A stretch of 64,000 nt of DNA from Psammoneis japonica (taxonomy: Eukaryota), in assembly GCA_008632985.1 (NCBI GenBank), contig QPGO01000076.1, positions 310,001 through 374,000 of the forward strand, read 5' to 3'. The number at the start of each line of letters is the position of its first letter. Positions within the stretch are counted from its first letter, which is position 1. The notes below the pieces were generated by a model. The model saw only the letters and a program-made list of their open reading frames with translations, had not been told where the DNA came from and did no database searches. Of the stretch, positions 5,052-63,900 are shown piece after piece. The translations under genes were made by a program, and so were the position numbers.

Positions 5052-8000
5052 GTGTTGACCAAACCCCACCCAACATCTCGTTTCAAAGGAAAGGCGACAA
5101 AGAGGCACATTGCCGTGACATCAAAACGTGTGATCCGATCGACGAGTTCTGCACAGATGACAAATTTGATGACACCTGGGTTTGTCGCTCAAAATGAATG
5201 TGATGCTCACGCGGACACTTGTTGCGCTGGGGCGAACTGGAAGCTCATGGAGATGACAAATGAAGTGTGTGAGGTACATCCATTTCTGGACTCTTGTGAG
5301 CCGATCAAACAGATTCCTGTGGCACGTTGTTGCACCGCATGGACAGATCCGGAAACGACTCGTGAACATTTGCTGGTTGGTGATCAAATGCTCTGGTTTG
5401 GGACCGACATGGAACACTCACTTTTGAATCCTAACCAACTCCGTGCGTGCAACATGCCCGCACACGACAACCCTTGCGACACCCGAAACGGATTTGGCAT
5501 TGAAGCTGATGAAGCTTTCATCCCTTTCAACACCACGGGGACAATTGTGTCTTTCAAGTCTCGTGTTCCAGCGGATTGGGAAGTGCAGAACTTGCCGGTC
5601 ATGCTGTTGACAGGTGACGCATGGGATCCAGCACAGACAGACATGGGCTCACCGGAGCGCGCTAGAGAGCAGGCGGAGATGCGCACTGTTCGATCATTGG
5701 CCTCTGGCATGCGACAAGAACAGGTCTCGGAATTAAGGAGCGAGAAGGCAAAGTCCCAAGCAGCACGCTGGGGCGAGGTCGAAATGCAACTGTCGTCTGC
5801 ATCTCCCATCTGTCAACTTCAATCATTTTGCGACAGGCTTGTCAGCTCAGTGAACGTGGCTTGCACACATCGCGACGACGTGGACAAGAGGCAGAGGGCA
5901 GTCAAAGATTTGTGTGGCAAGGATCGGCACTCGAAGGTTGACGCTGAAGAGCTGGCCCGAAAATGGAATGTCGGTTTAGAAACGGCAAAAGACACTCTCA
6001 ATGTAACAACTCAGCGCGGTGTACAAACGGCGACCCAGCCGATGTCACGAAGAGTGAGGGTGGATCATCTTGACTTGCATCGGAAGCGTCTGAAAGGAAC
6101 ATGGTTTGTGGACACTTTGACATCCAAGGTGAAGTCTTTGCTCGGTGACACGTGTGCCAATGTTTGTGCTCAGGGCAAATTCGTGAAGGTTGCGCCGATG
6201 ACCGCCAGGTCGGAGGCAGGTTCATCTCTTGTTGAATTCACAGACGACATGGGTGCACCAGAACATCTTATGTCAGACGGGGCAGGAGAGTTCACTGGAA
6301 GGAGCACCGAATTTGTGAGACACGCACGATGTATGAGAATGCAATCAAGAACATCAGAGCAGGGTCGGAAGAACCAGAACCAGGCAGCGGAGCGTGAAAT
6401 TGGTTTCTCAGCCAAACGTTGGCGGCTGCGGATGACGAAGAAGAAGGCACCAAAGCGATTGTGGGATTTTGGTCTTGTTTGCGAGTCGGAATTAGTGTCA
6501 TGCATGGCAAGAGGCAGGGATGAGAGGACTGGATGTGAAGAGGTCACTGGGCAGACACCAGAGACAGGCAAGCATTTGGATTTTGGTTTCTGCGACATGG
6601 CATGGTGGTGGGACAGGCCCAACAAGCCGAGTGCAACTGACAATCCTCGAAGGCTTGGACGGTGGCTTGGTGTCTCACACAAAGTTGGCTCGGATGTGTG
6701 CCATTGGATTGTTGCGGAAAGCGGGAAGATTGTCTCCAAAACATCGGTCGAGCACGTGACACAGGCTGATGTGGTGCAACCGGACATTCGCGTCAAGGTC
6801 GACAACTTTAATGAGCAGCTGGAGAAGCAATTGGACGATGCCAACTTTGTCTTAAAAGGCGATGAAGCTGTGCCCACATTCGTGTTGGACGATCTTGCAA
6901 TTGACGGCAACCTTGGTGTGGAGTGTGAGGGCGGCATCACGCCAGAGGACGAAGAATGTGGCAACATGCCATCACCCGACGAGTGACCAGACGACGATGA
7001 CGAGCAGGCAATCGATCAACACCTGGGAATGGAACTCATGTTTGACATCGGAACCAACGGCGAGCGACGTGGTGTTGTGATGAAACATGCAAGAGGACAG
7101 GATGGGCGTCCAATTGGGACTCGGCAACAAAACCCATTGTTTGACACTCGCAAATGCGAAGTGGAACATGCCGACGGAACCACAGACAAGTGTGCAGCCA
7201 ATGTTGTTGCCGAGAACATGTTTGCTCAGGTCGACAGTGAGGGCAACCAGCATTCTATCTTGCATGAAATGCAGGACCACGAGAGGAGTGACGATGCGGT
7301 GTCGATTGCTGATGGCACCGTACGAACCGCTGACGGGAAGGAGAAGAAGAAGATCACAACAAAAGGATGGAAGTCATTGGTCGGATGGAAGGATGGCTGC
7401 TCATCTTGGGTCAAACTCAAAGATCTAAAGGACTCTAACCCCACTGAAGTTGCTGAGCATGCTGTTGCGAACAGGTTGACGGAAGAACCTGCTTTTGCTT
7501 GGTGGGTCACACATGTCCCACGCAAACGGAACCGCATCACATCCAAGGTCAAGAAGAAGTGCTGGTGCACGACTCACAAGTTTGGGGTCTGATTGCCCAA
7601 GTCCACGGAGGACGCTTTGCGGATTGATCAGGAAACGGGGACAGATTGTTGGGCTCGTGCAATCAACAAGGAGATGGCAAAGGCAAAGGTGGCATGGTGC
7701 GAGCACGAAGCTGAAACCCCTCAAGTGGTCCGGGAAGGCAAGAGTGCAACTTTGCGTGGTTGTCAGGAGATCAGGTGCCACATGGTGTTCGACATTAAAA
7801 TGGATTTCACCAGAAAGGCAAGGTTTGTAGCTGGCGGACACACGACAGAGGCCCCGGCATCGATCACTTGCTCCAGCGTGGTTTCCAGAGACAGTGTGCG
7901 ACTTGGATTCTTGTTGGCAGCCTTGAATGGCATCGATGTTGCGGCAATTGATCTGGAGAATGCTTGTCTCAATGCACCGTGCGCAGAAAAGACATGGTTT

Positions 8001-9305
8001 GAAGGCGGAAAGGAATGCGGCGAGTGTGAAGGAAAGGTGCTCATTGTCACTCGGGCGTCACATGGCTCAAAGAGCTCGGGATGCTCTTGGAGGTCTGCAC
8101 TGTCATCGGTCTTGCATGACTCAGGCTTCGAATCAACGAGAGCGGACCCAGATGTCCACTTGCGTGCGGCGACTCGTGAGGATGGGCACGAGTGTTGTGA
8201 AATGCTTTTGGTTTGTGTCGATGACACACCAATCATTTCCCATCAAGGGAAGTCCATTGTTGCTGCAGTGGGTGAACACTGTGCCATGAAGCCCGGCAGT
8301 GAAGGAGAACCAGAAGTTCATCTTGGAGCTAACATTGAGAAGGTTCAGACTCAGGATGGGCACACAATCTGGGCGAGTTCACCGAGGTCACATGTCAAAT
8401 CGGCGATTGAGACTGTGGAAGGCCTGTTGGATGAAGACGGCAATGGAGAGGTTCTGAAGAACAGTGCAAAGGATCCACCACCCCTGAAATGCAAACCGGA
8501 ACTGGACGTGACGGACGAGTTAGGTCCCGACTTGGTGGACAGGCATTTGCAGCTGACAGGGATTTGTCGTTGGGCGATCGAGTTGGGTCGCATCGACATC
8601 TTGCATGAGGTTTCAATCCCATCTCAACATCAAGCTAATCCAAGGAAAGGACATCTTGAGGCATTGCATCGTGCACTTGCGTGTGTGAAGAAACACCAGA
8701 ACGTCGGACGCATCGGATTTGATCCAAAGGAACCGGTGATTGATGAATCTGTTTTCAATTCAAACGCAGACTGGACCGAGTTTTACGGGGACGTCGAGGA
8801 GGAACTGCCGCCACGGGCACTGAAGCCTCGTGGCAATCCGGCGAACATCTGTGCATTTGTTGACGCTAACCATGCAGGGAATGTTGTCACTCGCAGGTCG
8901 CATGGCGGGATTCTGACATTCGTCAATGACGAGCCAGTGGTGTGGTTCAGCAAGCGGCAGAACATGGTGGAATCGGCAACGTTTGGAAGTGAATTGGTTG
9001 CAGTGCGGATTTGTAAGGAATTGATTGTTGCTTTGCATTGCAAGCTTCACATGTTTGGGGTTCCCCTTGAAGGACCGGCAAGTGTCTTTTGTGACAATCG
9101 CGGTGTTGTGAAGAACGCAAGTGTGCCCGAGTCGGTTTTGCACAAGAAGCACAATGCCATCAACTGCCATGTTGTGCGAGAAGCGGTCGCAGCGGGAATT
9201 GTTCGTGTTGGCAAGGAGGACACGGAAACGAACTTGGCCGATCTACTTACGAAGGTGGTTGCAGGAGAGCGGCGATGGAAGCTTTGCTCGTGCATTTTTT
9301 GGCAA
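5052..9305 (+). pseudogene. pol: Copia pol (protease, integrase, RT, RNase H) pseudogene
   Basis: Protease DAHADTCC. Integrase SDGAGEF...NQAAEREI. RT CHMVFDIKMDFTRKARFVAGGH and LVCVDD (YVDD motif, 8214-8225). RNase H FVDANHAG...ESATFGSEL...NLADLLTK. In-frame TGA stops at 6984-6986 and 7590-7592. Likely original stop TAA now reads CAA (9303-9305). Confidence 0.93.
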
Positions 9306-9469
9306 TGTCCCGACACCAAGGCCAGGCACCTGTGGCTCGTGTCCACGTGTCGTGGCCTCCCAAGCCAGCACATCTGGTGGTTTAATTTGGGTTCTTGTGG
9401 TTTGCCTCTCTGTGAGAGGATGTTGCATGTTTGGACGAATCGGCATTGCCATTGCCGTTTCGCGGGGAC

Positions 9470-9652
9470 TGAGTAAATCTGGATGGAGGGCTGTGTCATA
9501 ATTTGGTGATTGGTTGAGACACATGGATCGAGTGGTGCTGCAGCGACATGCTCACAATCTAATCAGGTTTGGGTTCGCATTGACAGCGTCACCACTTTCT
9601 GTTTAGACTTGAGGCATCGTGCTTGTTCTTTCATTGCATCGAGATTCATTCG
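9470..9652 (+). repeat. 3' LTR (TpA-mutated copy)
   Basis: Aligns end to end with 2782-2966, with 13 substitutions and one 2-bp indel. Confidence 0.92.
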
Positions 9653-14182: not shown

Positions 14183-15205
14183 TTTTGGTTGTAAGAGACG
14201 AATGGAGGTTTGGATTTAAAAGATAGAAGGTAACTATAGAAAACTTCCCGCTCCATCCATCCGGAGGTGAGGCCTTGGGGGCCCATGTGGCATAGACGGG
14301 CGTGATTATTCCTATCGTAGTGTGTATTGTTGGCTTAGAAAGTTTACTGGTTACATTCTCAGAAGCGAGTGTTTACAGAGAATAATCATTCGTTGTGTGT
14401 GCGCACATCCTCTTTGTTGTATTCAATTGCATAATTCTCGCTACCCTAAGGCTTGTACTGCAAGCCGTAGCTAGAGAGTGTTCCGGGGGTGGCAATCATA
14501 TTTGGTGGTGGGACTCTTCCGCCTCTACCGGTATAGCAGTGGACTCTTTCATACTAAAGCGTGGACTCGTTGGTATGGTACTCCCACTTCATGGTGGAGC
14601 AAGTCCAGTAACTACTATTAGGAGTGGCTCTGTTCAAGTCTTGGACTTGGTGGAGAGGTGGTCAGCAGCTACTGCCCGTAGTGGACGTGGCTCAAGCATG
14701 CATTTCCTTGGATGAAGTGTCAGGACACGTCTCCTCAAGACGTGAGTAATATTGTCCATGGTTATAACAAAGGTTTGCAAAAAAGAAAGAGTCGTCCTAT
14801 GTAAAGCTCCATAAGTGTGTCTATTCGAATTATTTCTGCCTTTCTCGCAACTTCAAATTTGGTGTACTCGCTCAGGCTACGAGGGAACAAGACTAGCAGT
14901 GGACGAGTCACTGAAAGAACTACTGCTCGCACATTCCAACTTTGATCTTCGAGTTCACATGGGATTGTGCACCGAACTGTGTTTATTACTATTTTTTGCC
15001 ATTGTGTCACTTTGAAAAGTGCAATGCAGTCTTTCGAGACTGCTGATCTGTACGCGATAGTATCATGCATACCCATTCCCCCAAAACTGACCCGAGTCGT
15101 AGAGAAATGGGTGGGTTTCTATAATACGGGGCCCGCCATTGCGAACTTTCGGCAATTGAGACATGAATCGACGAAGAAGCAACAGATACCTAATATCATT
15201 CAATT

Positions 15206-23309: not shown

Positions 23310-24476
23310 TCAACGCATGTCATCCATGGAGTGGATCGAGAGGCTTTCCACATCACCCGCTTTGGCGTCCGCACCGCCGTCATCGTCCGCATTATCAGGA
23401 GAGGAACCACGGCGAATCGAAGAAGACGTTTCTTCTGCTCCTGCGTTTCCTCTGTCTACCGATGTAGAAGATCCCTCGTATCGAGAGAGCTCACTCTGAA
23501 AAGATTCCATCCTGGAGGTGTGTTGTTCAATCACGCCTAAAGCAATTGCCGAGGCACGATACTCGGCACGAAGGATTCTGTTAGACTGCTGGGTATTTTC
23601 GTACATGGTGAGAAAGTTCTCCGACTGACGTCTACTCTTGCAAGTCTCAATTGGCTCAATTGAACCATCTTCACATTTCCCAAGGAAGTCCTTGAAGTCT
23701 TTGTTGCAGCGTTTGGCCAACTTGTACAATATGAAGCACGCGTACACTTGAGAGGCGTACAATATAAGAAGCAAAGGGGGGAAGCATATCTTCCAGAAAT
23801 ATTTCCAGTTGCCTTCTTGAGCGTCGAGAGAACCGTCTTGCAGACCCGCAATATAGTAGACGAATGACACGATGGTCACAATTGTCTTCAAAACGAAAGC
23901 TTGAACAGCCGCAGCATAGAACAGGGAGCCCTGACGTGCTGGATACAAGCTTAAGCGGAAGCAAAAGAGAGCCAAAAAGCTCACCTGCTCAGTCGTAGCA
24001 TGGAACCCAAGAAGTAATGCGTAGCGGAGGTACATTATATCCCTAGTGTCGAAAAAAGATGCCGTAGATAACTGAATGAGCAAGAGAGTTACGAGGTGAT
24101 GTACAAGGAGTGGGATGCCGAACTTTTCTCTGTAGCAAAGTTCCCACGTGTACAAAATAGCAATGAGCTGGATCGCCAGCTCCATCCAGTGCAAACGAGC
24201 CTCTGTCGTAGTATCTTGCCCACGAAAAAGAATATCATAACCACCGTAGATTTGTGCGATGAACACAAAGGTTGTTAAAAAAAATTCCATCACATAGGTG
24301 ACAACATTGCGCTTCTTGTCTTCTGAGAGAGCTCTAAAGCAGAACTTGATATCAAGCTTTTTGACGTAAAGAAGCGCATGGCGGGTGAGATTGGATGAGA
24401 GCCACATGCATAGGAAAAAGTTGATGCACATCCAAGGGTACTGATATGGGCTGTAGAGGTCATAAGGAACCGACAT
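23310..24476 (-). CDS. Multi-pass membrane protein (possibly TLC-domain-like)
   Basis: Intact ORF from ATG 24476 with 6-7 hydrophobic helices, an LLVHHLVTL motif and a Ser-rich tail. Confidence 0.7.
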   Translation of the reverse strand: MSVPYDLYSPYQYPWMCINFFLCMWLSSNLTRHALLYVKKLDIKFCFRALSEDKKRNVVTYVMEFFLTTFVFIAQIYGGYDILFRGQDTTTEARLHWMELAIQLIAILYTWELCYREKFGIPLLVHHLVTLLLIQLSTASFFDTRDIMYLRYALLLGFHATTEQVSFLALFCFRLSLYPARQGSLFYAAAVQAFVLKTIVTIVSFVYYIAGLQDGSLDAQEGNWKYFWKICFPPLLLILYASQVYACFILYKLAKRCNKDFKDFLGKCEDGSIEPIETCKSRRQSENFLTMYENTQQSNRILRAEYRASAIALGVIEQHTSRMESFQSELSRYEGSSTSVDRGNAGAEETSSSIRRGSSPDNADDDGGADAKAGDVESLSIHSMDDMR

Positions 24477-25171
24477 AAGATCTGTTTTTAAATGTTGGTG
24501 TCGGGGTTGCTTGTGTACGGTGTACGGGGGGAGCTGGCAGTTGTTGTCAATTCGTGGCAAAGAAACGATGGGAATATATTTTAATGAGGAAATGGGACAG
24601 TTACACTGTAACTACGTGACAAGAAGAGTGCAACAGCGCAACATGCAGGCACCGGTACTAACTGCGGATGGTGTCGCAATGCGTGGCAATGCGCAATAAC
24701 GCTTCACGTCGCCGTCGCCCGCATCATCGCATCGCTCCATCGACACAAAATTCTGACAACCGATGTCTCATAATTTTTTAACGACGACATCTTTCTCCTT
24801 CAAAATTACTTAACATTAAAAAACCTTCTTTGGGATTTGAAGACAAATAAATAATTAATGAAGGGTACTGGCTGGACATTTCCTCCCCGTAGATGCTGTA
24901 CATAAGTACGTACGTACAGTGCCGGTAGTTGAATACTGTGAATCACGAGTCTTTAATCCCGCATGACTCGCTCGACTCGAATTTTTTGGAAGTTTCAGCA
25001 GACTTTGACCCCCGCTATAGCCACAACATACACAAGATATGAGCATTATCGGTCTCGTACTCTTTAAACCAATGTCTTGTGAGAATGTAATAGGCATGTA
25101 TTGTTCATGGTATCTGGTATTTCAAAATAATAGAACTAACTTTTCATGGAACACCTGTGACAAAAGACAGC

Positions 25172-25185
25172 CATTATATATCTAA
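25172..25185 (+). promoter_or_regulatory. TATA-like element upstream of the permuted tRNA
   Basis: CATTATATATCTAA about 30-45 bp upstream of the tRNA 3' half. Confidence 0.45.
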
Positions 25186-25216
25186 AGTTCCCCAGGGAAA
25201 TTAGCAGCTGTAAGAC

Positions 25217-25293
25217 ATCGGGAGATTCCGGGTTCGAATCCCGGGCGGGATTCTCCTGTCCCGTTGGCTCAATGGTACAGCGCCCGACTACGG
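25217..25293 (+). tRNA. Circularly permuted tRNA-Arg(ACG): 3' half 25217-25252, spacer CTCCT, 5' half 25258-25293
   Basis: Joining the 5' half to the 3' half gives a 72-nt cloverleaf: acceptor GTCCCGT/GCGGGAT, D-arm GCT..AATGGTA..AGC, anticodon stem CCCGA/TCGGG with loop CTACGG|A, T-arm CCGGG-TTCGAAT-CCCGG. Confidence 0.88.
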
Positions 25294-25300
25294 TCAGCTC

Positions 25301-25314
25301 TTTTTCATTTTTTT
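25301..25314 (+). terminator. RNA polymerase III oligo-T terminator
   Basis: TTTTTCATTTTTTT, 7 nt downstream of the tRNA 5' half. Confidence 0.7.
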
Positions 25315-25329
25315 GCAGCAGTCCTAATT

Positions 25330-28300
25330 GCACGTGGGTGCCGTGGTGGGGCTCAGGGCTGCTGCTTTGCCAAGATCGGTGCTTTTGCTGGCAGCGATTG
25401 TCGTCGTGTTGTGTTGCTTGGCTTGATGCTTGATGGCAAGGCTGTTTCTTTTGCTTTTTTTTGTCAGCCAGCATTGAAACAGCCACTCAACTCCTCCTGC
25501 TGCAAGAGAGCAACTCTTGACACTCCTCTTGTTGCTTCATGTGCTGCCTCTTGTTTGAGGCTTTTTGTTCAGCCACACACCTCTTTCCTCTTTCCTGCAC
25601 TCAACAAAAGATGGCTCAACTTTTCTCCTGAAAGAAAGGGGGGTTGCTTGCAAGCCCAAGATTTGTTGTCATGTGTTTGAGGGGGCAGAGCTCTGGAAGC
25701 TGCAAAAGCTGACAAGTGCAGCCCAAGAACCAAGCACAAAAGCCATCATGAATCCACCACAAGGCAGGTGCTTGCACCATGAATGCAAAAGGCTTCTTGT
25801 TTTTGTTTTTGTACAATGACGAGGGAAAGAAGGGGCACTTGGCTCTGTTGAATCATTCAAAAGTCTGGTTGCTGAGTGAGCAGCACGTGCCGCCAAGTTG
25901 CAACCTTTCTCCTCAACAAACTAAAGTGTGATTGCCTGTGCAGGCCAAAATGATGGCTGCATTTGAAGAGTGGCTGGGCACAACCCAGCAACAAGCCACT
26001 TTTCAAACAAATGAAAATGGCGGTTTGCACCACAGTTGTCAACATGGTGAATGGCTGCCATGATGGCAAATGCCAGCAAGTGCACAGTCTGCAGCAGCCA
26101 AAGAGTGCACCTGGGTGTGTCTCATTCTGCTGCATTGAGCAACTTTCCCTGCACCGGCTGTGTGATCCTCTCCTGCAAAAGCGTTTCTGAGGCAATTTTC
26201 ATCATGCTGGGCCATGCACAAATTTGGCACCTGGTCTGTCTTTTTCAAAAAATGCACAGACTTCGGCCCTTTCCCAGGTGGGAGCGGACCTCATTGGATC
26301 ATGTCGCATTGTGACAGCTCCTGGTCTTCAAAGTGACGGGCATGGTCCACACTCACAGCATTGTTGTGTGCAGGCAGTGATGGTTTGGTGTGGCGCTGGC
26401 TGATGGCTCCTTTGGATGGGCTCTCATGACAAAAGGAGTGCTGCTGGCAGACCACAAAGGTGCAGTGTTTGGACAGCTGTGGTCTCATCACACCAAACAG
26501 AGGCTTGTGGCATGATGCTGCCCTTCTGTCATCTCACATTTCATTTTTTTTAGCTCTGTGGGGCAGTGGCCAGCAGTGCAGGAATGGCGCCAGCACTTGC
26601 AGCAACAATTTGTTGGCTGAAATGGTGAGTCAACTTGATTGACCATTCCTTGCTGCCAGCTCAAGCGCCATCACCACACAAATGAGACAGAGAAGCTGAC
26701 TTCCACATCATGCTCATCAATTTTTTTGGCAAATGCTCTCTCTCTAGACTGGGGTGCTGCCAAAAAAATTTGCAGTGCACTGGTCAAAATCAGGGCATGC
26801 AAACAAGTTGAGGGAACCTCCAGATCACTTGCAATTCTCAAGTGGGTGAAGGGTCATGAAGGCAGTCAAGCCCCAGCTCATGCACCCTTCTGTGGAAAAT
26901 GACAACAAACACCAGACCCAACAAGATTGCTGTGGCAACTGCCATGGCATGTGCTCATGCTGGACCACATTTTGCTCCTGGATTCCCACACAGCTCTTGA
27001 GCCTCATTGTTGGCAAAGCTGCTTTGGCATCCTGCTGCAAGATGAAAATTTGATTGCAGCTTTTGCCCCCTTCTTTGACACACACACACACACAAAAGCA
27101 CCCACAGACAGATTGAGCTTGTGTGACCAAAATTGACTGGAAAGTGCTCATGGCTCTCACAAGCCATCACATCAGAAAACAAGTGGTGTCCACCACAAAA
27201 CTTGAGCAAGACCTCTCTCCTCCTCTTCCCACCAGCAAGATTGCACACTCCTGACGCAGCTCAGCATGACCACCAGACTGCTCCTTTGTTCAAGCAAAGC
27301 ATGAAGGAGAGGCAAAGGCACATGTGCTGCACAGAGTGAAGACAACTGCCAGTTGCTTTGGTTGGGTGCCACAAAGTCAGCACTGGGACAGGCCAGTCTG
27401 CTTTCAATTTTGTCTTGCTGCTGTGCCATGTGCTGAAAGTGTGGGTCAGCCTGCTGCTGGGAGTGGCTGGGAGCGTTCTTGCCTTGGTGCACTGCAGGGT
27501 CTTTGGGAGCAAACATGGGCATCCTCCACCAGTTTGTTGCAAGGCTTGCTCTTCTGGCATGCAGACAATCTCCAAGTGGATCAATGGACTTGACACAATC
27601 ATCCAAGTTGACACTGTGCAGCAGCTGATGCTTGGGTGGTGGGTTGTGCACCTCTTTTTCTTCTTGCTCAGGAGTGGCACAAGCAAGTCCAGGATTCTTG
27701 AGTTTTGGGGGCTTTGTGTGATGCATTTTGGTTTGTGACAATGGCAGCAAAGTCTGGCATGCTGTTGTTGTGCAACACACAAGAACATGTGCAGCACCAA
27801 GTCCTTGGTTCAAAGGCAGGGTGATCAAAGTAGATCTCAAAAAACTTCAGGGGCAAAAGAAGCAATCAAAACACAAGTGGTTTGTTGCGTCCTCCTTTGC
27901 ATTGGCCAGAGCAGCTCTTTGCACTTTCAGCAACACAAAAGATGATCTTTGCTGTTGGTGTTTGGTCAACCACTGGCATCCCTTCTTGGAAATGTCTTTG
28001 GGAGAGCAGGAGAGGAAGAGAAGGCTTGCCGCCCTTTCCAGATTTCCAGCCTTGAGCTTGGGCATGTTTTGCTTCAAAGGATGTCTTTTCGCTGGCACGT
28101 GCATGCAAACATGCAGCTGAAACACTAAATCAACAATCAAACTGGCAACAAAGGAGGCAGCATTTGTCTTGGCAGCCATGCCAAATTGCTTGTCACTTGA
28201 CAAAAAAGAATGACATTCAACCTCAGCAAAACAGAGGAGCAAAGAGGCTCCCACAGCAAGAGAGGTGGAGCTGGCGCTGGCAGAGGCAGCAGCCAAGCTG

Positions 28301-60900: not shown

Positions 60901-63900
60901 ATCCCTGCAGAGAACTCTGATGGATGTGTTGAGGTTCGTGCCTGCTGCCACCCACAGATCCAATCTACGTTGGTTGATGAGCGACTCCTCCTTCGTCAAA
61001 ATGGCCCTCGTCGTGCAGACCACAATGTTGATTGTGTCCTCAAGTTCCATGATCTCGGCACCTGCAAGTTTGTTGCACGACACCGATTGCACAAGAATCA
61101 GGACATCATCATTCATGGGAAATTGATCAATGGCAAATGCTTTGCTCACCCTCTCATCCTCCCAGAATCTAATGATGAATTGGGTGCATCTGTTGAGCGC
61201 CTCAAGACCAGTGACCCTTCCTTTGCTGATGAGTGTGAAGCAGTCTCTGTGCACATGATTGAAACATGTGACACCTGCCAACATGACGCTCTTCGTGCTG
61301 AATGCAAGTTGATCCCCCGAGTGCATCAAGATGTTCCTTTTGAAGAGCATGCAGAGAAGAATGTCCCTGTCCAATCTCTCAAGGCTGACACGGAATGCCT
61401 TTCATGGCATCAGCGACTTGGTCATCCGAGTGATCACTGCCTTTGTCATGCCCATGAACACGGTGTCCCCAAGTTTGCCCACGGAACTTCTCCTCTCGAC
61501 ACTTGTCCCACATGCACACAAGCAAAGCAGACAAAGGAACCTGCTGGTCCGAACACTGCTCTTGCTGCCACCCAACCCTGCCAAGGTCTTGCGGTTGATT
61601 TTTCTTTCTCTGGCCTGCGGTCCAAGAACTCGGAGCGCACCAAAGACTGTGTTGGATTGAATGGCGAGACTTGTTGGATCACCATCTACGATCATAAAAC
61701 GAAGCATCTCCACCGTCCAAGGCAACCCCTCTGAATTGGCTTCGCCACTTTCTGGAAGAGCACTCACCAAAATGTCCAGACAAATGTGTGTTTGTGGATC
61801 AAGGAGGTGAATTGCATCAAAACCCAGAGGTTCGGTGACTTTTCGAGGATGACTTTCACCGCGCAATTTGTCCTGCGGGAAAAGATGCTTCAAACCAGAG
61901 GTGGCCCAGTGGAACGCAGTCATTTGACTGTTGCTGATGCCATCCGGGCGATGCTCATTGGTGCCAATTTGCCCACAAAATTCTGGCCCTGTGCTTTTCA
62001 TCATTTCACTCGAATCAACAACGCTGTGCCATCCCGCGGACAACCTGCTGCTCCGATTGCTCTTGCTGAGCTGGTCGAAAGGATGATTTCAAGAACTTTC
62101 GCATGTTTGGTTGCCAAGTGTGGGTGCGTGCGTCGAATCACCGCCCAGCAAAATTTCGGTCTGTCTCTTGCAAGGGTGTTTTCTTGGGCCATCTTCCAGA
62201 CACCACCAAGAACATCCTTTGGTGTGACACCGAGACGTCGCGTGTCAAGCTTGCCAAGCACATTCATCATGATGAGGGCATGAATGATCTACCCCACGAC
62301 TCTCTTCCCCTGAATGTGGTTCACTTGGAGCATGCTCAAGATGGCAAGGCTTCACCTGCCAAGACTGAAGAATCTACGATGGACGAGCTCCACTTTCATG
62401 GGAATCCTTTTGCCAAGACCATTGCGCATACGATGAAGGGGCCGTTTGCTGATCCGACATTTGGAATTTCATTGACTGCGGATGATCTCCATCAGCAAGT
62501 GTTTGTCTCTGATGTCAAGCATGGTTCTCCTGCTGCGCGTCTTTTCTGTTCTTTGAAGGCAACCTGCAACAAGATCAAGGGTGCGTGTGTCGCATTGATT
62601 GATGATCACCCTGTCTTTGTGGCAGAGGAGGCCATCAAACGTTTTCGACAAGTCTGTGATTCTGGCAAGACTCACTTTGAAATCGAGTTTGCGCCGGAAC
62701 GTCAACTGGACTCCCAGGCTCTACAACGTGCCCTGATGGAACACAATGTCTGTGCACCGACTCCTGACCCTGATGACGAACATGTCCCGGAAATTGCCAA
62801 TGCTGACATGCATGCTGTTGCTGCCATCCGTCACCCTGATGTTGATTTTTCCGATGTGGACGATGATGACATCCCTCCGTTGATCCATGTCGACTGCGAC
62901 AATGGTGTGGTCAACATCTGCACCATTTCATCTCATGCCATTGCTCCGGAGGAACAAGCGTCAGGTGCTTTCACTCGCCATTGTCTCAAGAAGCTGGGCA
63001 CCTGGCCCGAATGGCATGTGGGTGAATTCAAACAACTTGACCAATTCCATGAGTTGGGGATGTTTGGTGCACCGATTGAATGTCCAAAGGATGCCACAGT
63101 CCTTTGTCCACATTGGCAACATGATCTCAAGCATGATGGCACGCGACGATCTTGACAATGCTGCGATGGATCTCCTTGTGCTGCGTCAATCCTCCATTGT
63201 CTTCACTCAACCCACTCCTCTTGTGTGGAACAACCTGTCCAACGCATGTTTTTTGCCCTTGCTGCGACTGTGAGCTACCCTGTGTTTGGTGGTGATGCTC
63301 ATGATGCCTGTGCACACTCTCCACGACCGTCACACCCCGTCTGTGTTGCTGTTGACGAAGCATGCGCGACTTGGCACAAGGCTCGGTTTGGCATTGATTT
63401 GGATGGGACCATGGTGCTTCCGATGCAACATGCACTTCAGGGACACCCAGAAGCCAGCGTGCTCTGGGAGATGCACATCAACGGCATTTTGTCGATGTGA
63501 ATCCACTTTTTCGCAACACCGCTCATGACAAATGCATCTGTTCTGCTGCTTTTGAGGGACACAAGATCTTGCTCCTCCATCAGGTTGATGACTTCTCCCT
63601 TGCGTGTCCTGAAGAGTCCCTTGCGATCAAGACACACGACAAGATTGGCAAAGCTCTTGAATTGGAATCGGAAACCTCCCTGCCTTTCAAGTGTCTTGGC
63701 GTGATTGAAGAGTTCAATGGTGTGGATGTTCATCAACATGATGACTCTGTTGGCATTGCTGTTCACAGCCATGTTGATCGGGTTTGCACCTCGCATGGAT
63801 GGTCGACACCGACGGAAGAGGAACTCGACGATGACTGCAAGGCTGCGCCAATCCCGGTTGACTCTTTCGTGAACTGTGCACTGCTGTTGGTCCAGCTGAA

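Follow-up and report, generated by a model that had tools for sequence, protein, structure and literature searches.

Permuted tRNA genes described so far

The table compiled by Soma in 2014 contains 34 permuted tRNA genes, distributed over Cyanidioschyzon merolae, four green algae, the nucleomorph of Bigelowiella natans and Thermofilum pendens (PMC3978253). Neither an Arg(ACG) gene nor a stramenopile appears in this table; the 37/38 junction is the common type among its green-algal entries, and its intervening sequences are 1-74 bp long (PMC3978253). A review of 2026 names the identical lineages, and whether these genes are ancient leftovers or repeated inventions is, according to it, still debated (PMC13578239).

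The type II genes of Ostreococcus and Micromonas (Maruyama et al. 2010, as tabulated in Soma 2014; PMC3978253) share with the gene described here the 3' half placed first, the location of both halves on one strand, the 37/38 junction, intron-free halves and the lack of an encoded CCA. They differ in the length of the intervening sequence, which is 11-64 bp in these picoalgae and 5 in the present gene. The host also differs, being a diatom nucleus here, and Arg(ACG) is not among the 19 green-algal genes of the table, the nearest being Arg(TCT) of O. tauri. The genes of C. merolae, reported in 2007, have in common with the present gene a TATA-like box, a T-stretch, a leader/trailer motif resembling a bulge-helix-bulge (BHB), which is relaxed in its predicted form here, and a proposed pathway via a circle, RNase P, tRNase Z and CCA addition, and five of its 11 permuted genes are of type II (PMC3978253). 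However, junctions occur at four positions in C. merolae, extra introns are present, and the permuted arginine gene is an Arg(CCT) of type IV; furthermore, the circle has been demonstrated experimentally there, whereas in the diatom it is proposed by analogy (PMC3978253).

The permuted tRNA-Ser genes of the B. natans nucleomorph likewise have a type II junction and an intervening sequence of 5 bp (PMC3978253, Table 1), but they belong to another amino acid and lie in a relict green-algal nucleus rather than in the host nucleus (PMC3978253). Circular permutation and a splicing-type motif at the junction are also shared with T. pendens (Chan, Cozen and Lowe 2011, cited in PMC3978253), which differs in being an archaeon with a 59/60 junction, an encoded CCA, and the strict archaeal BHB and enzyme (PMC3978253). 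The permuted genes of Auxenochlorella were found via an incomplete tRNAscan-SE tRNA set, in which respect the cases are alike, and differ in belonging to a green alga (bioRxiv 10.1101/2025.02.07.637104). The 5-nt spacer, the 37/38 junction and the combination of TATA-like box and T-stretch of the present gene all lie within the range tabulated for published permuted genes (PMC3978253).

The present gene shares this design and presumably also the pathway; what is new is the host lineage, a major one, and the isoacceptor, Arg(ACG). A literature search covering the main text of papers and preprints found no report of a permuted tRNA in diatoms or other stramenopiles, and the accessible text of PlantRNA 1.0 and 2.0, which curate Phaeodactylum, makes no mention of permuted heterokont genes. 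The statement in the first-pass annotation that no report from diatoms or stramenopiles was known is thus in agreement with both this search and the 34-gene table.

Layout of the gene

The locus is best explained as a working nuclear gene of a diatom that encodes tRNA-Arg(ACG) in circularly permuted form. It would belong to type II in Soma's scheme, with its junction at 37/38, and its transcript would be matured by splicing enzymes via an RNA circle; the probability of this reading is put at roughly 0.78. Its features within the window, that is, the whole stretch of 64,000 nucleotides that was analysed, are listed below.

25175-25181, + strand: TATA-like box TATATAT, 36-42 nt 5' of the first tRNA base, likely an RNA polymerase III upstream promoter element
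25206-25216, + strand: leader, predicted to be removed in maturation (register analysis and fold with the cloverleaf fixed; the 5' limit is an inferred one)
25216/25217, + strand: predicted 3' cut site (register analysis, fold)
25217-25252, + strand: 3' half of tRNA-Arg(ACG), positions 38-73 (sequence, ARAGORN, alignment, covariance model)
25253-25257, + strand: 5-nt spacer CTCCT (sequence, alignment)
25258-25293, + strand: 5' half of tRNA-Arg(ACG), positions 1-37 without position 17 (sequence, ARAGORN, alignment, covariance model)
25290-25292, + strand: anticodon ACG, inside the 5' half
25293/25294, + strand: predicted 5' cut site (register analysis, fold)
25294-25299, + strand: trailer, predicted to be removed in maturation (register analysis and fold)
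25301-25305 and 25308-25314, + strand: two T-runs (T5 and T7), likely a polymerase III terminator (sequence)

The layout and the cloverleaf are direct observations. Reading of the sequence places positions 38-73 ahead of positions 1-37, with CTCCT between them. The first part begins with A38 and runs through the anticodon stem (3' strand), a 5-nt variable loop, a T arm whose loop is TTCGAAT, and the acceptor stem (3' strand) to discriminator T, while the second comprises the acceptor stem (5' strand), T8, a D arm that includes A14, G18 and G19, the anticodon stem (5' strand) and the loop bases C32, T33, A34, C35, G36 and G37. CTCCT follows the discriminator T directly, so that CCA is not encoded. 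The 3' half thus stands 5' of the 5' half, on one strand, with a short intervening sequence at the acceptor ends, as in type II genes. In the window copy 20 of the 21 modelled cloverleaf pairs are standard, and the anticodon loop has 7 nt.

ARAGORN read the script-joined halves as a tRNA-Arg(acg) of 72 nt; presented with 25205-25303 in two tandem copies, it reported the identical tRNA with a 22-nt intron at 37. No tRNA gene was reported by ARAGORN in the native order of the halves, nor was any tRNA found in the whole 64-kb window with introns either allowed or disallowed. The window also gave no Rfam match at gathering score, and an ordinary contiguous 5'-to-3' cloverleaf, as described by RF00005 or by ARAGORN with or without a 37/38 intron, is not formed by the native sequence. 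A covariance model built from 14 metagenome units (see below), with the window left out, recovered 25217-25293 at 91.7 bits (E 3.8e-23) as its sole match in the 64 kb, which exceeds what chance would give. No partner halves flank the gene in the window; BLAST of each half returned only the half itself and chance matches of 9-17 nt. The proposed order of 3' half, five nucleotides CTCCT and 5' half is therefore borne out by the sequence, by ARAGORN on the joined halves and by the model match, and the proposed break at 37/38 by ARAGORN and the covariance model. The absence of missing halves nearby, and the prediction that standard tRNA scans would miss such a gene, were likewise confirmed by the BLAST searches and by the blank ARAGORN and Rfam results on the native window.

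A scan of rotated sequences across the window, comprising about 73,600 rotations for the + strand and about 57,500 for the - strand, also yielded a candidate permuted tRNA-Pro(tgg) at 14602-14724 (+). It was rejected as a false positive that forms only as a molecule of 79-101 nt, 109 of the 110 calls being 93-101 nt long.

Host lineage and recurrence of the layout on other contigs

The window contains an enolase gene, a Tic110-like ORF, sulfotransferase and glycosyltransferase ORFs, and pieces of copia-type retroelements. Among the 120 matches listed for the enolase, all ten organism-named relatives are diatoms, with a best identity of 92% among those listed, and the nearest Atlas cluster of the Tic110-like ORF is composed mostly of Bacillariophyta. 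The relatives of these two genes uphold the earlier description of the host as diatom-like. A neighbouring ORF of 433 aa in the window had no Pfam match. The copia-type pieces lie at 7593-9476 (+) and 62070-63155 (+) and carry an RVT_2 reverse transcriptase and a retroviral polymerase SH3-like domain.

No metagenome contig matched a 34-nt piece of the 3' half exactly. A degenerate layout pattern, comprising a T loop, 19-49 nt, a eukaryote-type Arg D arm and an ACG loop, was found at 27 metagenome loci, 17 of which have the window layout and together hold 18 units, one locus (L010) having two. Joining of the halves gave a 72-nt tRNA-Arg(acg) in ARAGORN for all 19 units, i.e. the 18 metagenome units and the window. 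After removal of duplicates (L003 = L024 = L025, L006 ~ L011, L008 ~ L013), 14 distinct units remained besides the window. Their spacers are 4-18 nt long and are not conserved, and the GC content of the permuted metagenome loci is 35-52%, which we take to be unlike that of Ostreococcus or Micromonas. No ordinary tRNA was detected within 1.5 kb of 16 of the 17 permuted loci.

Flanking genes also point to diatoms. Among 120 matches listed in each case, all six organism-named relatives of the ArgJ gene adjoining L007 are diatoms, as are all 12 of those of the fatty-acid desaturase adjoining L013, the latter including both centric and pennate species. This check of neighbouring genes covers the window, the L007 group and the L008/L013 group, and the other loci are tied to diatoms by likeness of the tRNA alone; the most divergent unit, L017, lies on a contig whose ORF gives a weak structural lead to a Bacillariophyta cluster (Atlas). 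By the sequences of the neighbouring genes, the host of the window is a diatom, and so are the hosts of at least two further locus groups. Flanks of L006/L011 and L009, and of L007 and L014, are 77-86% identical over pieces of 0.3-1.6 kb around a gene that is kept, which indicates an orthologous position in related species. The recurrence of the window layout on other diatom contigs means that it is not a one-off.

The remaining ten of the 27 loci (L004, L005, L015, L016, L019, L021, L022, L023, L026 and L027) are ordinary, closely spaced tRNA genes and were set aside. Five genome contigs that matched the pattern are bacterial His-Arg tandems, all of them ordinary, and viral contigs gave neither the layout pattern nor the unbroken junction. 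L004, L016, L019, L021-L023 and L026-L032 are ordinary His(GTG)-Arg(ACG) tandems with 8-nt spacers, and the titled records among them belong to Caldatribacterium and other bacteria.

Soundness of the assembly

Of three DNA runs considered, X1 contains 90% of the sampled words of 24200-26300, whereas X2 and X3, which come from one sample with X1, contain next to none. No RNA run was listed among the public runs containing the locus. A 6631-nt contig assembled from X1 spans 25100-25800 with a single difference (25167 A>G) and a depth of 60.7, as compared to 54.4 in the upstream flank, and the X1 contigs show no joints or loose ends inside 25181-25800.

The arrangement could in principle result from the collapse or mis-joining of an array of ordinary intron-containing tRNA-Arg genes. 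Some room for this is left by the fact that X1, the only DNA run with the locus, may be the assembly's own source and would then give no independent support, and by a high-copy repeat 80 nt upstream. The continuity of the X1 contig across the locus at near-flank depth nevertheless argues against a collapsed array, which the first-pass annotation had named as a finding that would refute its reading, and independent support for the arrangement comes from the seventeen metagenome contigs with the identical layout. Such an artefact is hence scarcely credible.

The repeat itself, of about 180 nt at 24960-25140, reaches a summed contig depth of about 5,800 in X1 as compared to 54-61 in the flanks. 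Many variant short contigs and loose ends map to 24949-25129, and the repeat has no second copy in the window.

Conservation as a tRNA

The 15 distinct units (14 from metagenomes and the window) were aligned (alignment A1), and the cloverleaf was scored in the permuted order over 21 pairs, giving 315 pair cells, of which 94.9% are standard pairs. Eight of the 21 pairs change on both sides. This conservation with paired changes is an observation made directly in the alignment. None of 500 shuffles reached the observed percentage of pairing, number of doubly changed pairs or covariation score, and 135 of the 500 reached the observed count of further pair types, counts that overstate the independence of the units because these are phylogenetically related. 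A control in which the partners were slid by 1-3 columns keeps the relatedness, and in it the pairing falls to 31-57%. Only 13:22 systematically fails to pair, in every one of the 15 units; it is often unpaired in tRNAs.

The window copy itself carries three paired changes with respect to the majority: C-G in place of U-A at 29:41 of the anticodon stem, U-A in place of C-G at 12:23 of the D stem, and one at 5:68 of the acceptor stem. Paired changes combined with kept pairing are the pattern of a gene under selection and unlike that of a decaying remnant. The anticodon loop CTACGGA and the anticodon ACG within it are invariant in all 15 units, while the anticodon stem covaries. G1-U72 at the top of the acceptor stem is also invariant (15/15; A1 columns 35:55), and U7-G66 occurs in 14 of the 15 units (columns 29:61), whereas the discriminator varies between T, G and A. 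This acceptor stem, unusual for an arginine tRNA, may be a lineage-specific identity or processing feature.

An alternative to be weighed against this conservation is that the locus encodes a non-decoding RNA resembling a tRNA, for example a Y-RNA-like module or a repeat derived from a tRNA. The best Rfam match of the window gene is YrlA (RF02553, E 3e-4), in which a T arm, an acceptor-like stem and a D arm lie inside an outer stem, a likeness to the permuted gene in topology only, and the high-copy repeat adjoins the locus. But the YrlA match reaches only 28.1 bits as compared to a gathering score of 69, and YrlA is a bacterial, non-decoding RNA without an anticodon loop. A mimic would not need an invariant CTACGGA loop, an invariant ACG and a covarying anticodon stem, and the locus stands at single-copy depth and is unique in the window. 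This explanation is accordingly considered very improbable.

Flanking signals and the putative splice motif

Putative signals for transcription recur at the flanks of the units, their recurrence again being a direct observation. TATA-like motifs start at -42 and -40 in the window. Across the related units, whose shared ancestry inflates the apparent significance of any enrichment, such a motif lies at -50 to -29 in eight of 15 as compared to 6.4% of 11,200 random positions at the same loci, and a run of four or more T within 24 nt downstream is found in 14 of 15 as compared to a background of 15.2%, the exception being the upstream unit of L010. The upstream TATA-like box and downstream oligo-T reported from the first reading of the locus are hence both present in the window and both enriched among its relatives. 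As in other type II genes, they would take the place of an internal order of A and B boxes that could be used. A scan for sigma-70 promoters and intrinsic terminators was blank; its promoter model is of the wrong type for a eukaryote.

In the window, G25214, third from the end of the leader, stands opposite C32 (25288), and A25213 opposite T33. In the fold, 25206-25210 pairs with 25295-25299 to form a 5-bp leader/trailer helix, which closes a 7x7 internal loop holding both predicted cut sites; 7 nt per strand is what a bulge of 3 nt and a helix of 4 bp add up to in a bulge-helix-bulge. In the canonical register, in which positions 32-35 pair with leader bases -3 to -6, the central splice helix of the window has two of four standard pairs, C32:G(-3) among them. 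The pairing of leader with trailer and the antepenultimate G opposite C32, as originally noted, are both recovered by the register analysis and the fold. The description of the substrate as BHB-like also holds for the geometry, whereas plain BHB would overstate a central helix with two of four pairs. The splice motif of the window is, as modelled, right in geometry but relaxed.

A similar picture is obtained from the relatives. The leader pairs with positions 32-35 in every unit (n = 15): in the canonical register four units have 4/4 pairs, two have 3/4 and four, including the window, have 2/4 with C32:G(-3) always kept, while the remaining five of the 15 form a perfect GTAG:CTAC helix (4/4 pairs) displaced by one base. 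In all 13 precursors folded with the four cloverleaf stems fixed, the leader pairs with the anticodon loop, the trailer or both. A relaxed motif of this geometry fits eukaryotic splicing endonucleases, which take their measure from the tRNA body and require the 32:(-3) pair, and not the strict motif of archaea. Folded without constraints, 25200-25305 does not form a cloverleaf (z-score -1.1), which is common among tRNA sequences; this result is uninformative.

Tandem units and unbroken genes

The question of the ancestral layout is touched by two of the loci, L010 and L005. L010 (678-852, - strand) contains two permuted Arg(ACG) units arranged head to tail with 19 nt between them, and the middle of the locus, made up of a 5' half, the 19 nt and a 3' half, is read by ARAGORN as an ordinary tRNA-Arg with a 37/38 intron. 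L010 shows, as a natural example, the easy interconversion of both layouts by tandem duplication. At L005 (1407-1634) an unbroken Arg(ACG) gene lies in a cluster of Val(AAC), 5 nt, Arg(ACG), 3 nt and Gln(TTG), on a 3.4-kb contig of 36.6% GC. Its sequence is almost that of the permuted diatom types, with G1-U72 and discriminator T likewise present in the Arg gene. The contig has no ORF of more than 136 aa, and its short ORFs are without Pfam match. In L006/L011, the last 7 bases of the 5' half and the first 10 bases of the trailer are repeated 40 nt downstream of the unit, this 17-nt direct repeat lying about 24 nt further downstream; it may be the vestige of a past duplication.

It could be argued from such loci that the permuted gene is a dead relic, left by a tandem-duplicated, intron-containing tRNA-Arg(ACG) gene that lost its outer halves, while an ordinary copy elsewhere does the work. 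Tandem duplication is indeed the proposed origin of permuted genes, L010 contains what reads as an ordinary gene with a 19-nt intron, and L005 carries an unbroken gene of nearly identical sequence. A relic should, however, decay, whereas 8 of 21 pairs change on both sides at 94.9% pairing over the 15 units, three of the paired changes being in the window copy; the layout is kept at orthologous positions despite flanks that are only 77-86% identical, TATA-like boxes and T-runs are kept, and an ordinary tRNA is absent within 1.5 kb of 16 of the 17 loci. A relic is thus regarded as improbable, though somewhat less so than a non-decoding RNA, and the working permuted gene remains the preferred reading.

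Proposed maturation

The enzymes, the order of the steps and the RNA circle in the proposed scheme are modelled on red and green algae. A single polymerase III transcript of about 100 nt would extend from the TATA-like box to the T-runs and comprise leader, 3' half, spacer, 5' half and trailer. Its body would fold as a normal cloverleaf with the acceptor stem closed by the spacer, and leader and trailer would pair mutually and with the anticodon loop, bringing both tRNA ends into a relaxed bulge-helix-bulge setting. The tRNA splicing endonuclease would cut after G37 (25293) and before A38 (25217), and tRNA ligase would join G37 to A38 to give a 77-nt circle, from which RNase P and tRNase Z would remove the CTCCT spacer, CCA being added afterwards. 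In eukaryotic tRNA-Arg(ACG), A34 is deaminated to inosine, and the tRNA reads CGU, CGC and CGA. The same deamination would allow the diatom tRNA to read these three codons, and of the 131 arginine codons counted in five ORFs of the window with Pfam support, 80 are CGT, CGC or CGA.

The promoter role assigned to the TATA-like box has its basis in the upstream TATA-like element of the C. merolae permuted genes (PMC3978253), and homologs of Trl1-type ligase are said to occur in diatoms (PMC4090602). A different route is also conceivable, in which the spacer is first excised from the linear precursor by RNase P and tRNase Z, leaving two base-paired pieces, and the endonuclease and ligase later join 37 to 38 without a circle, since the acceptor stem and elbow are already formed in that precursor and the end-processing enzymes could act first. 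Circular intermediates have, however, been seen by RT-PCR in red and green algae (PMC3978253), and a 5-nt loop lies within the processed range, with 5 in B. natans and 1 in T. pendens. This route is therefore considered unlikely, albeit less so than the other alternatives, and maturation via the circle is favoured.

Significance for diatoms

Diatom nuclei would be a large, ecologically dominant and phylogenetically distant addition to the hosts of permuted tRNAs, and Arg(ACG) would be a new isoacceptor among them. As ARAGORN and Rfam miss the gene, diatom tRNA sets may seem to be without Arg(ACG) or may be filled from wrong candidates; the covariance model built here, or a rotation-aware scan, would detect such genes.

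It is tentatively suggested, as a possibility that stands well behind the reading of the locus itself, that diatoms obtain tRNA-Arg(ACG) from the permuted gene alone and that this gene is older than the divergence of the sampled centric and pennate lines. If this is true, about 60% of the arginine codons in a main primary producer of the ocean would depend on the cutting, circularising and re-opening of an RNA. The design would then have come via genes of an algal endosymbiont or represent a further independent origin, which bears on the debate between ancient and recurrent permutation. If Phaeodactylum, which is transformable, carries the permuted gene, the pathway would be open to genetics.
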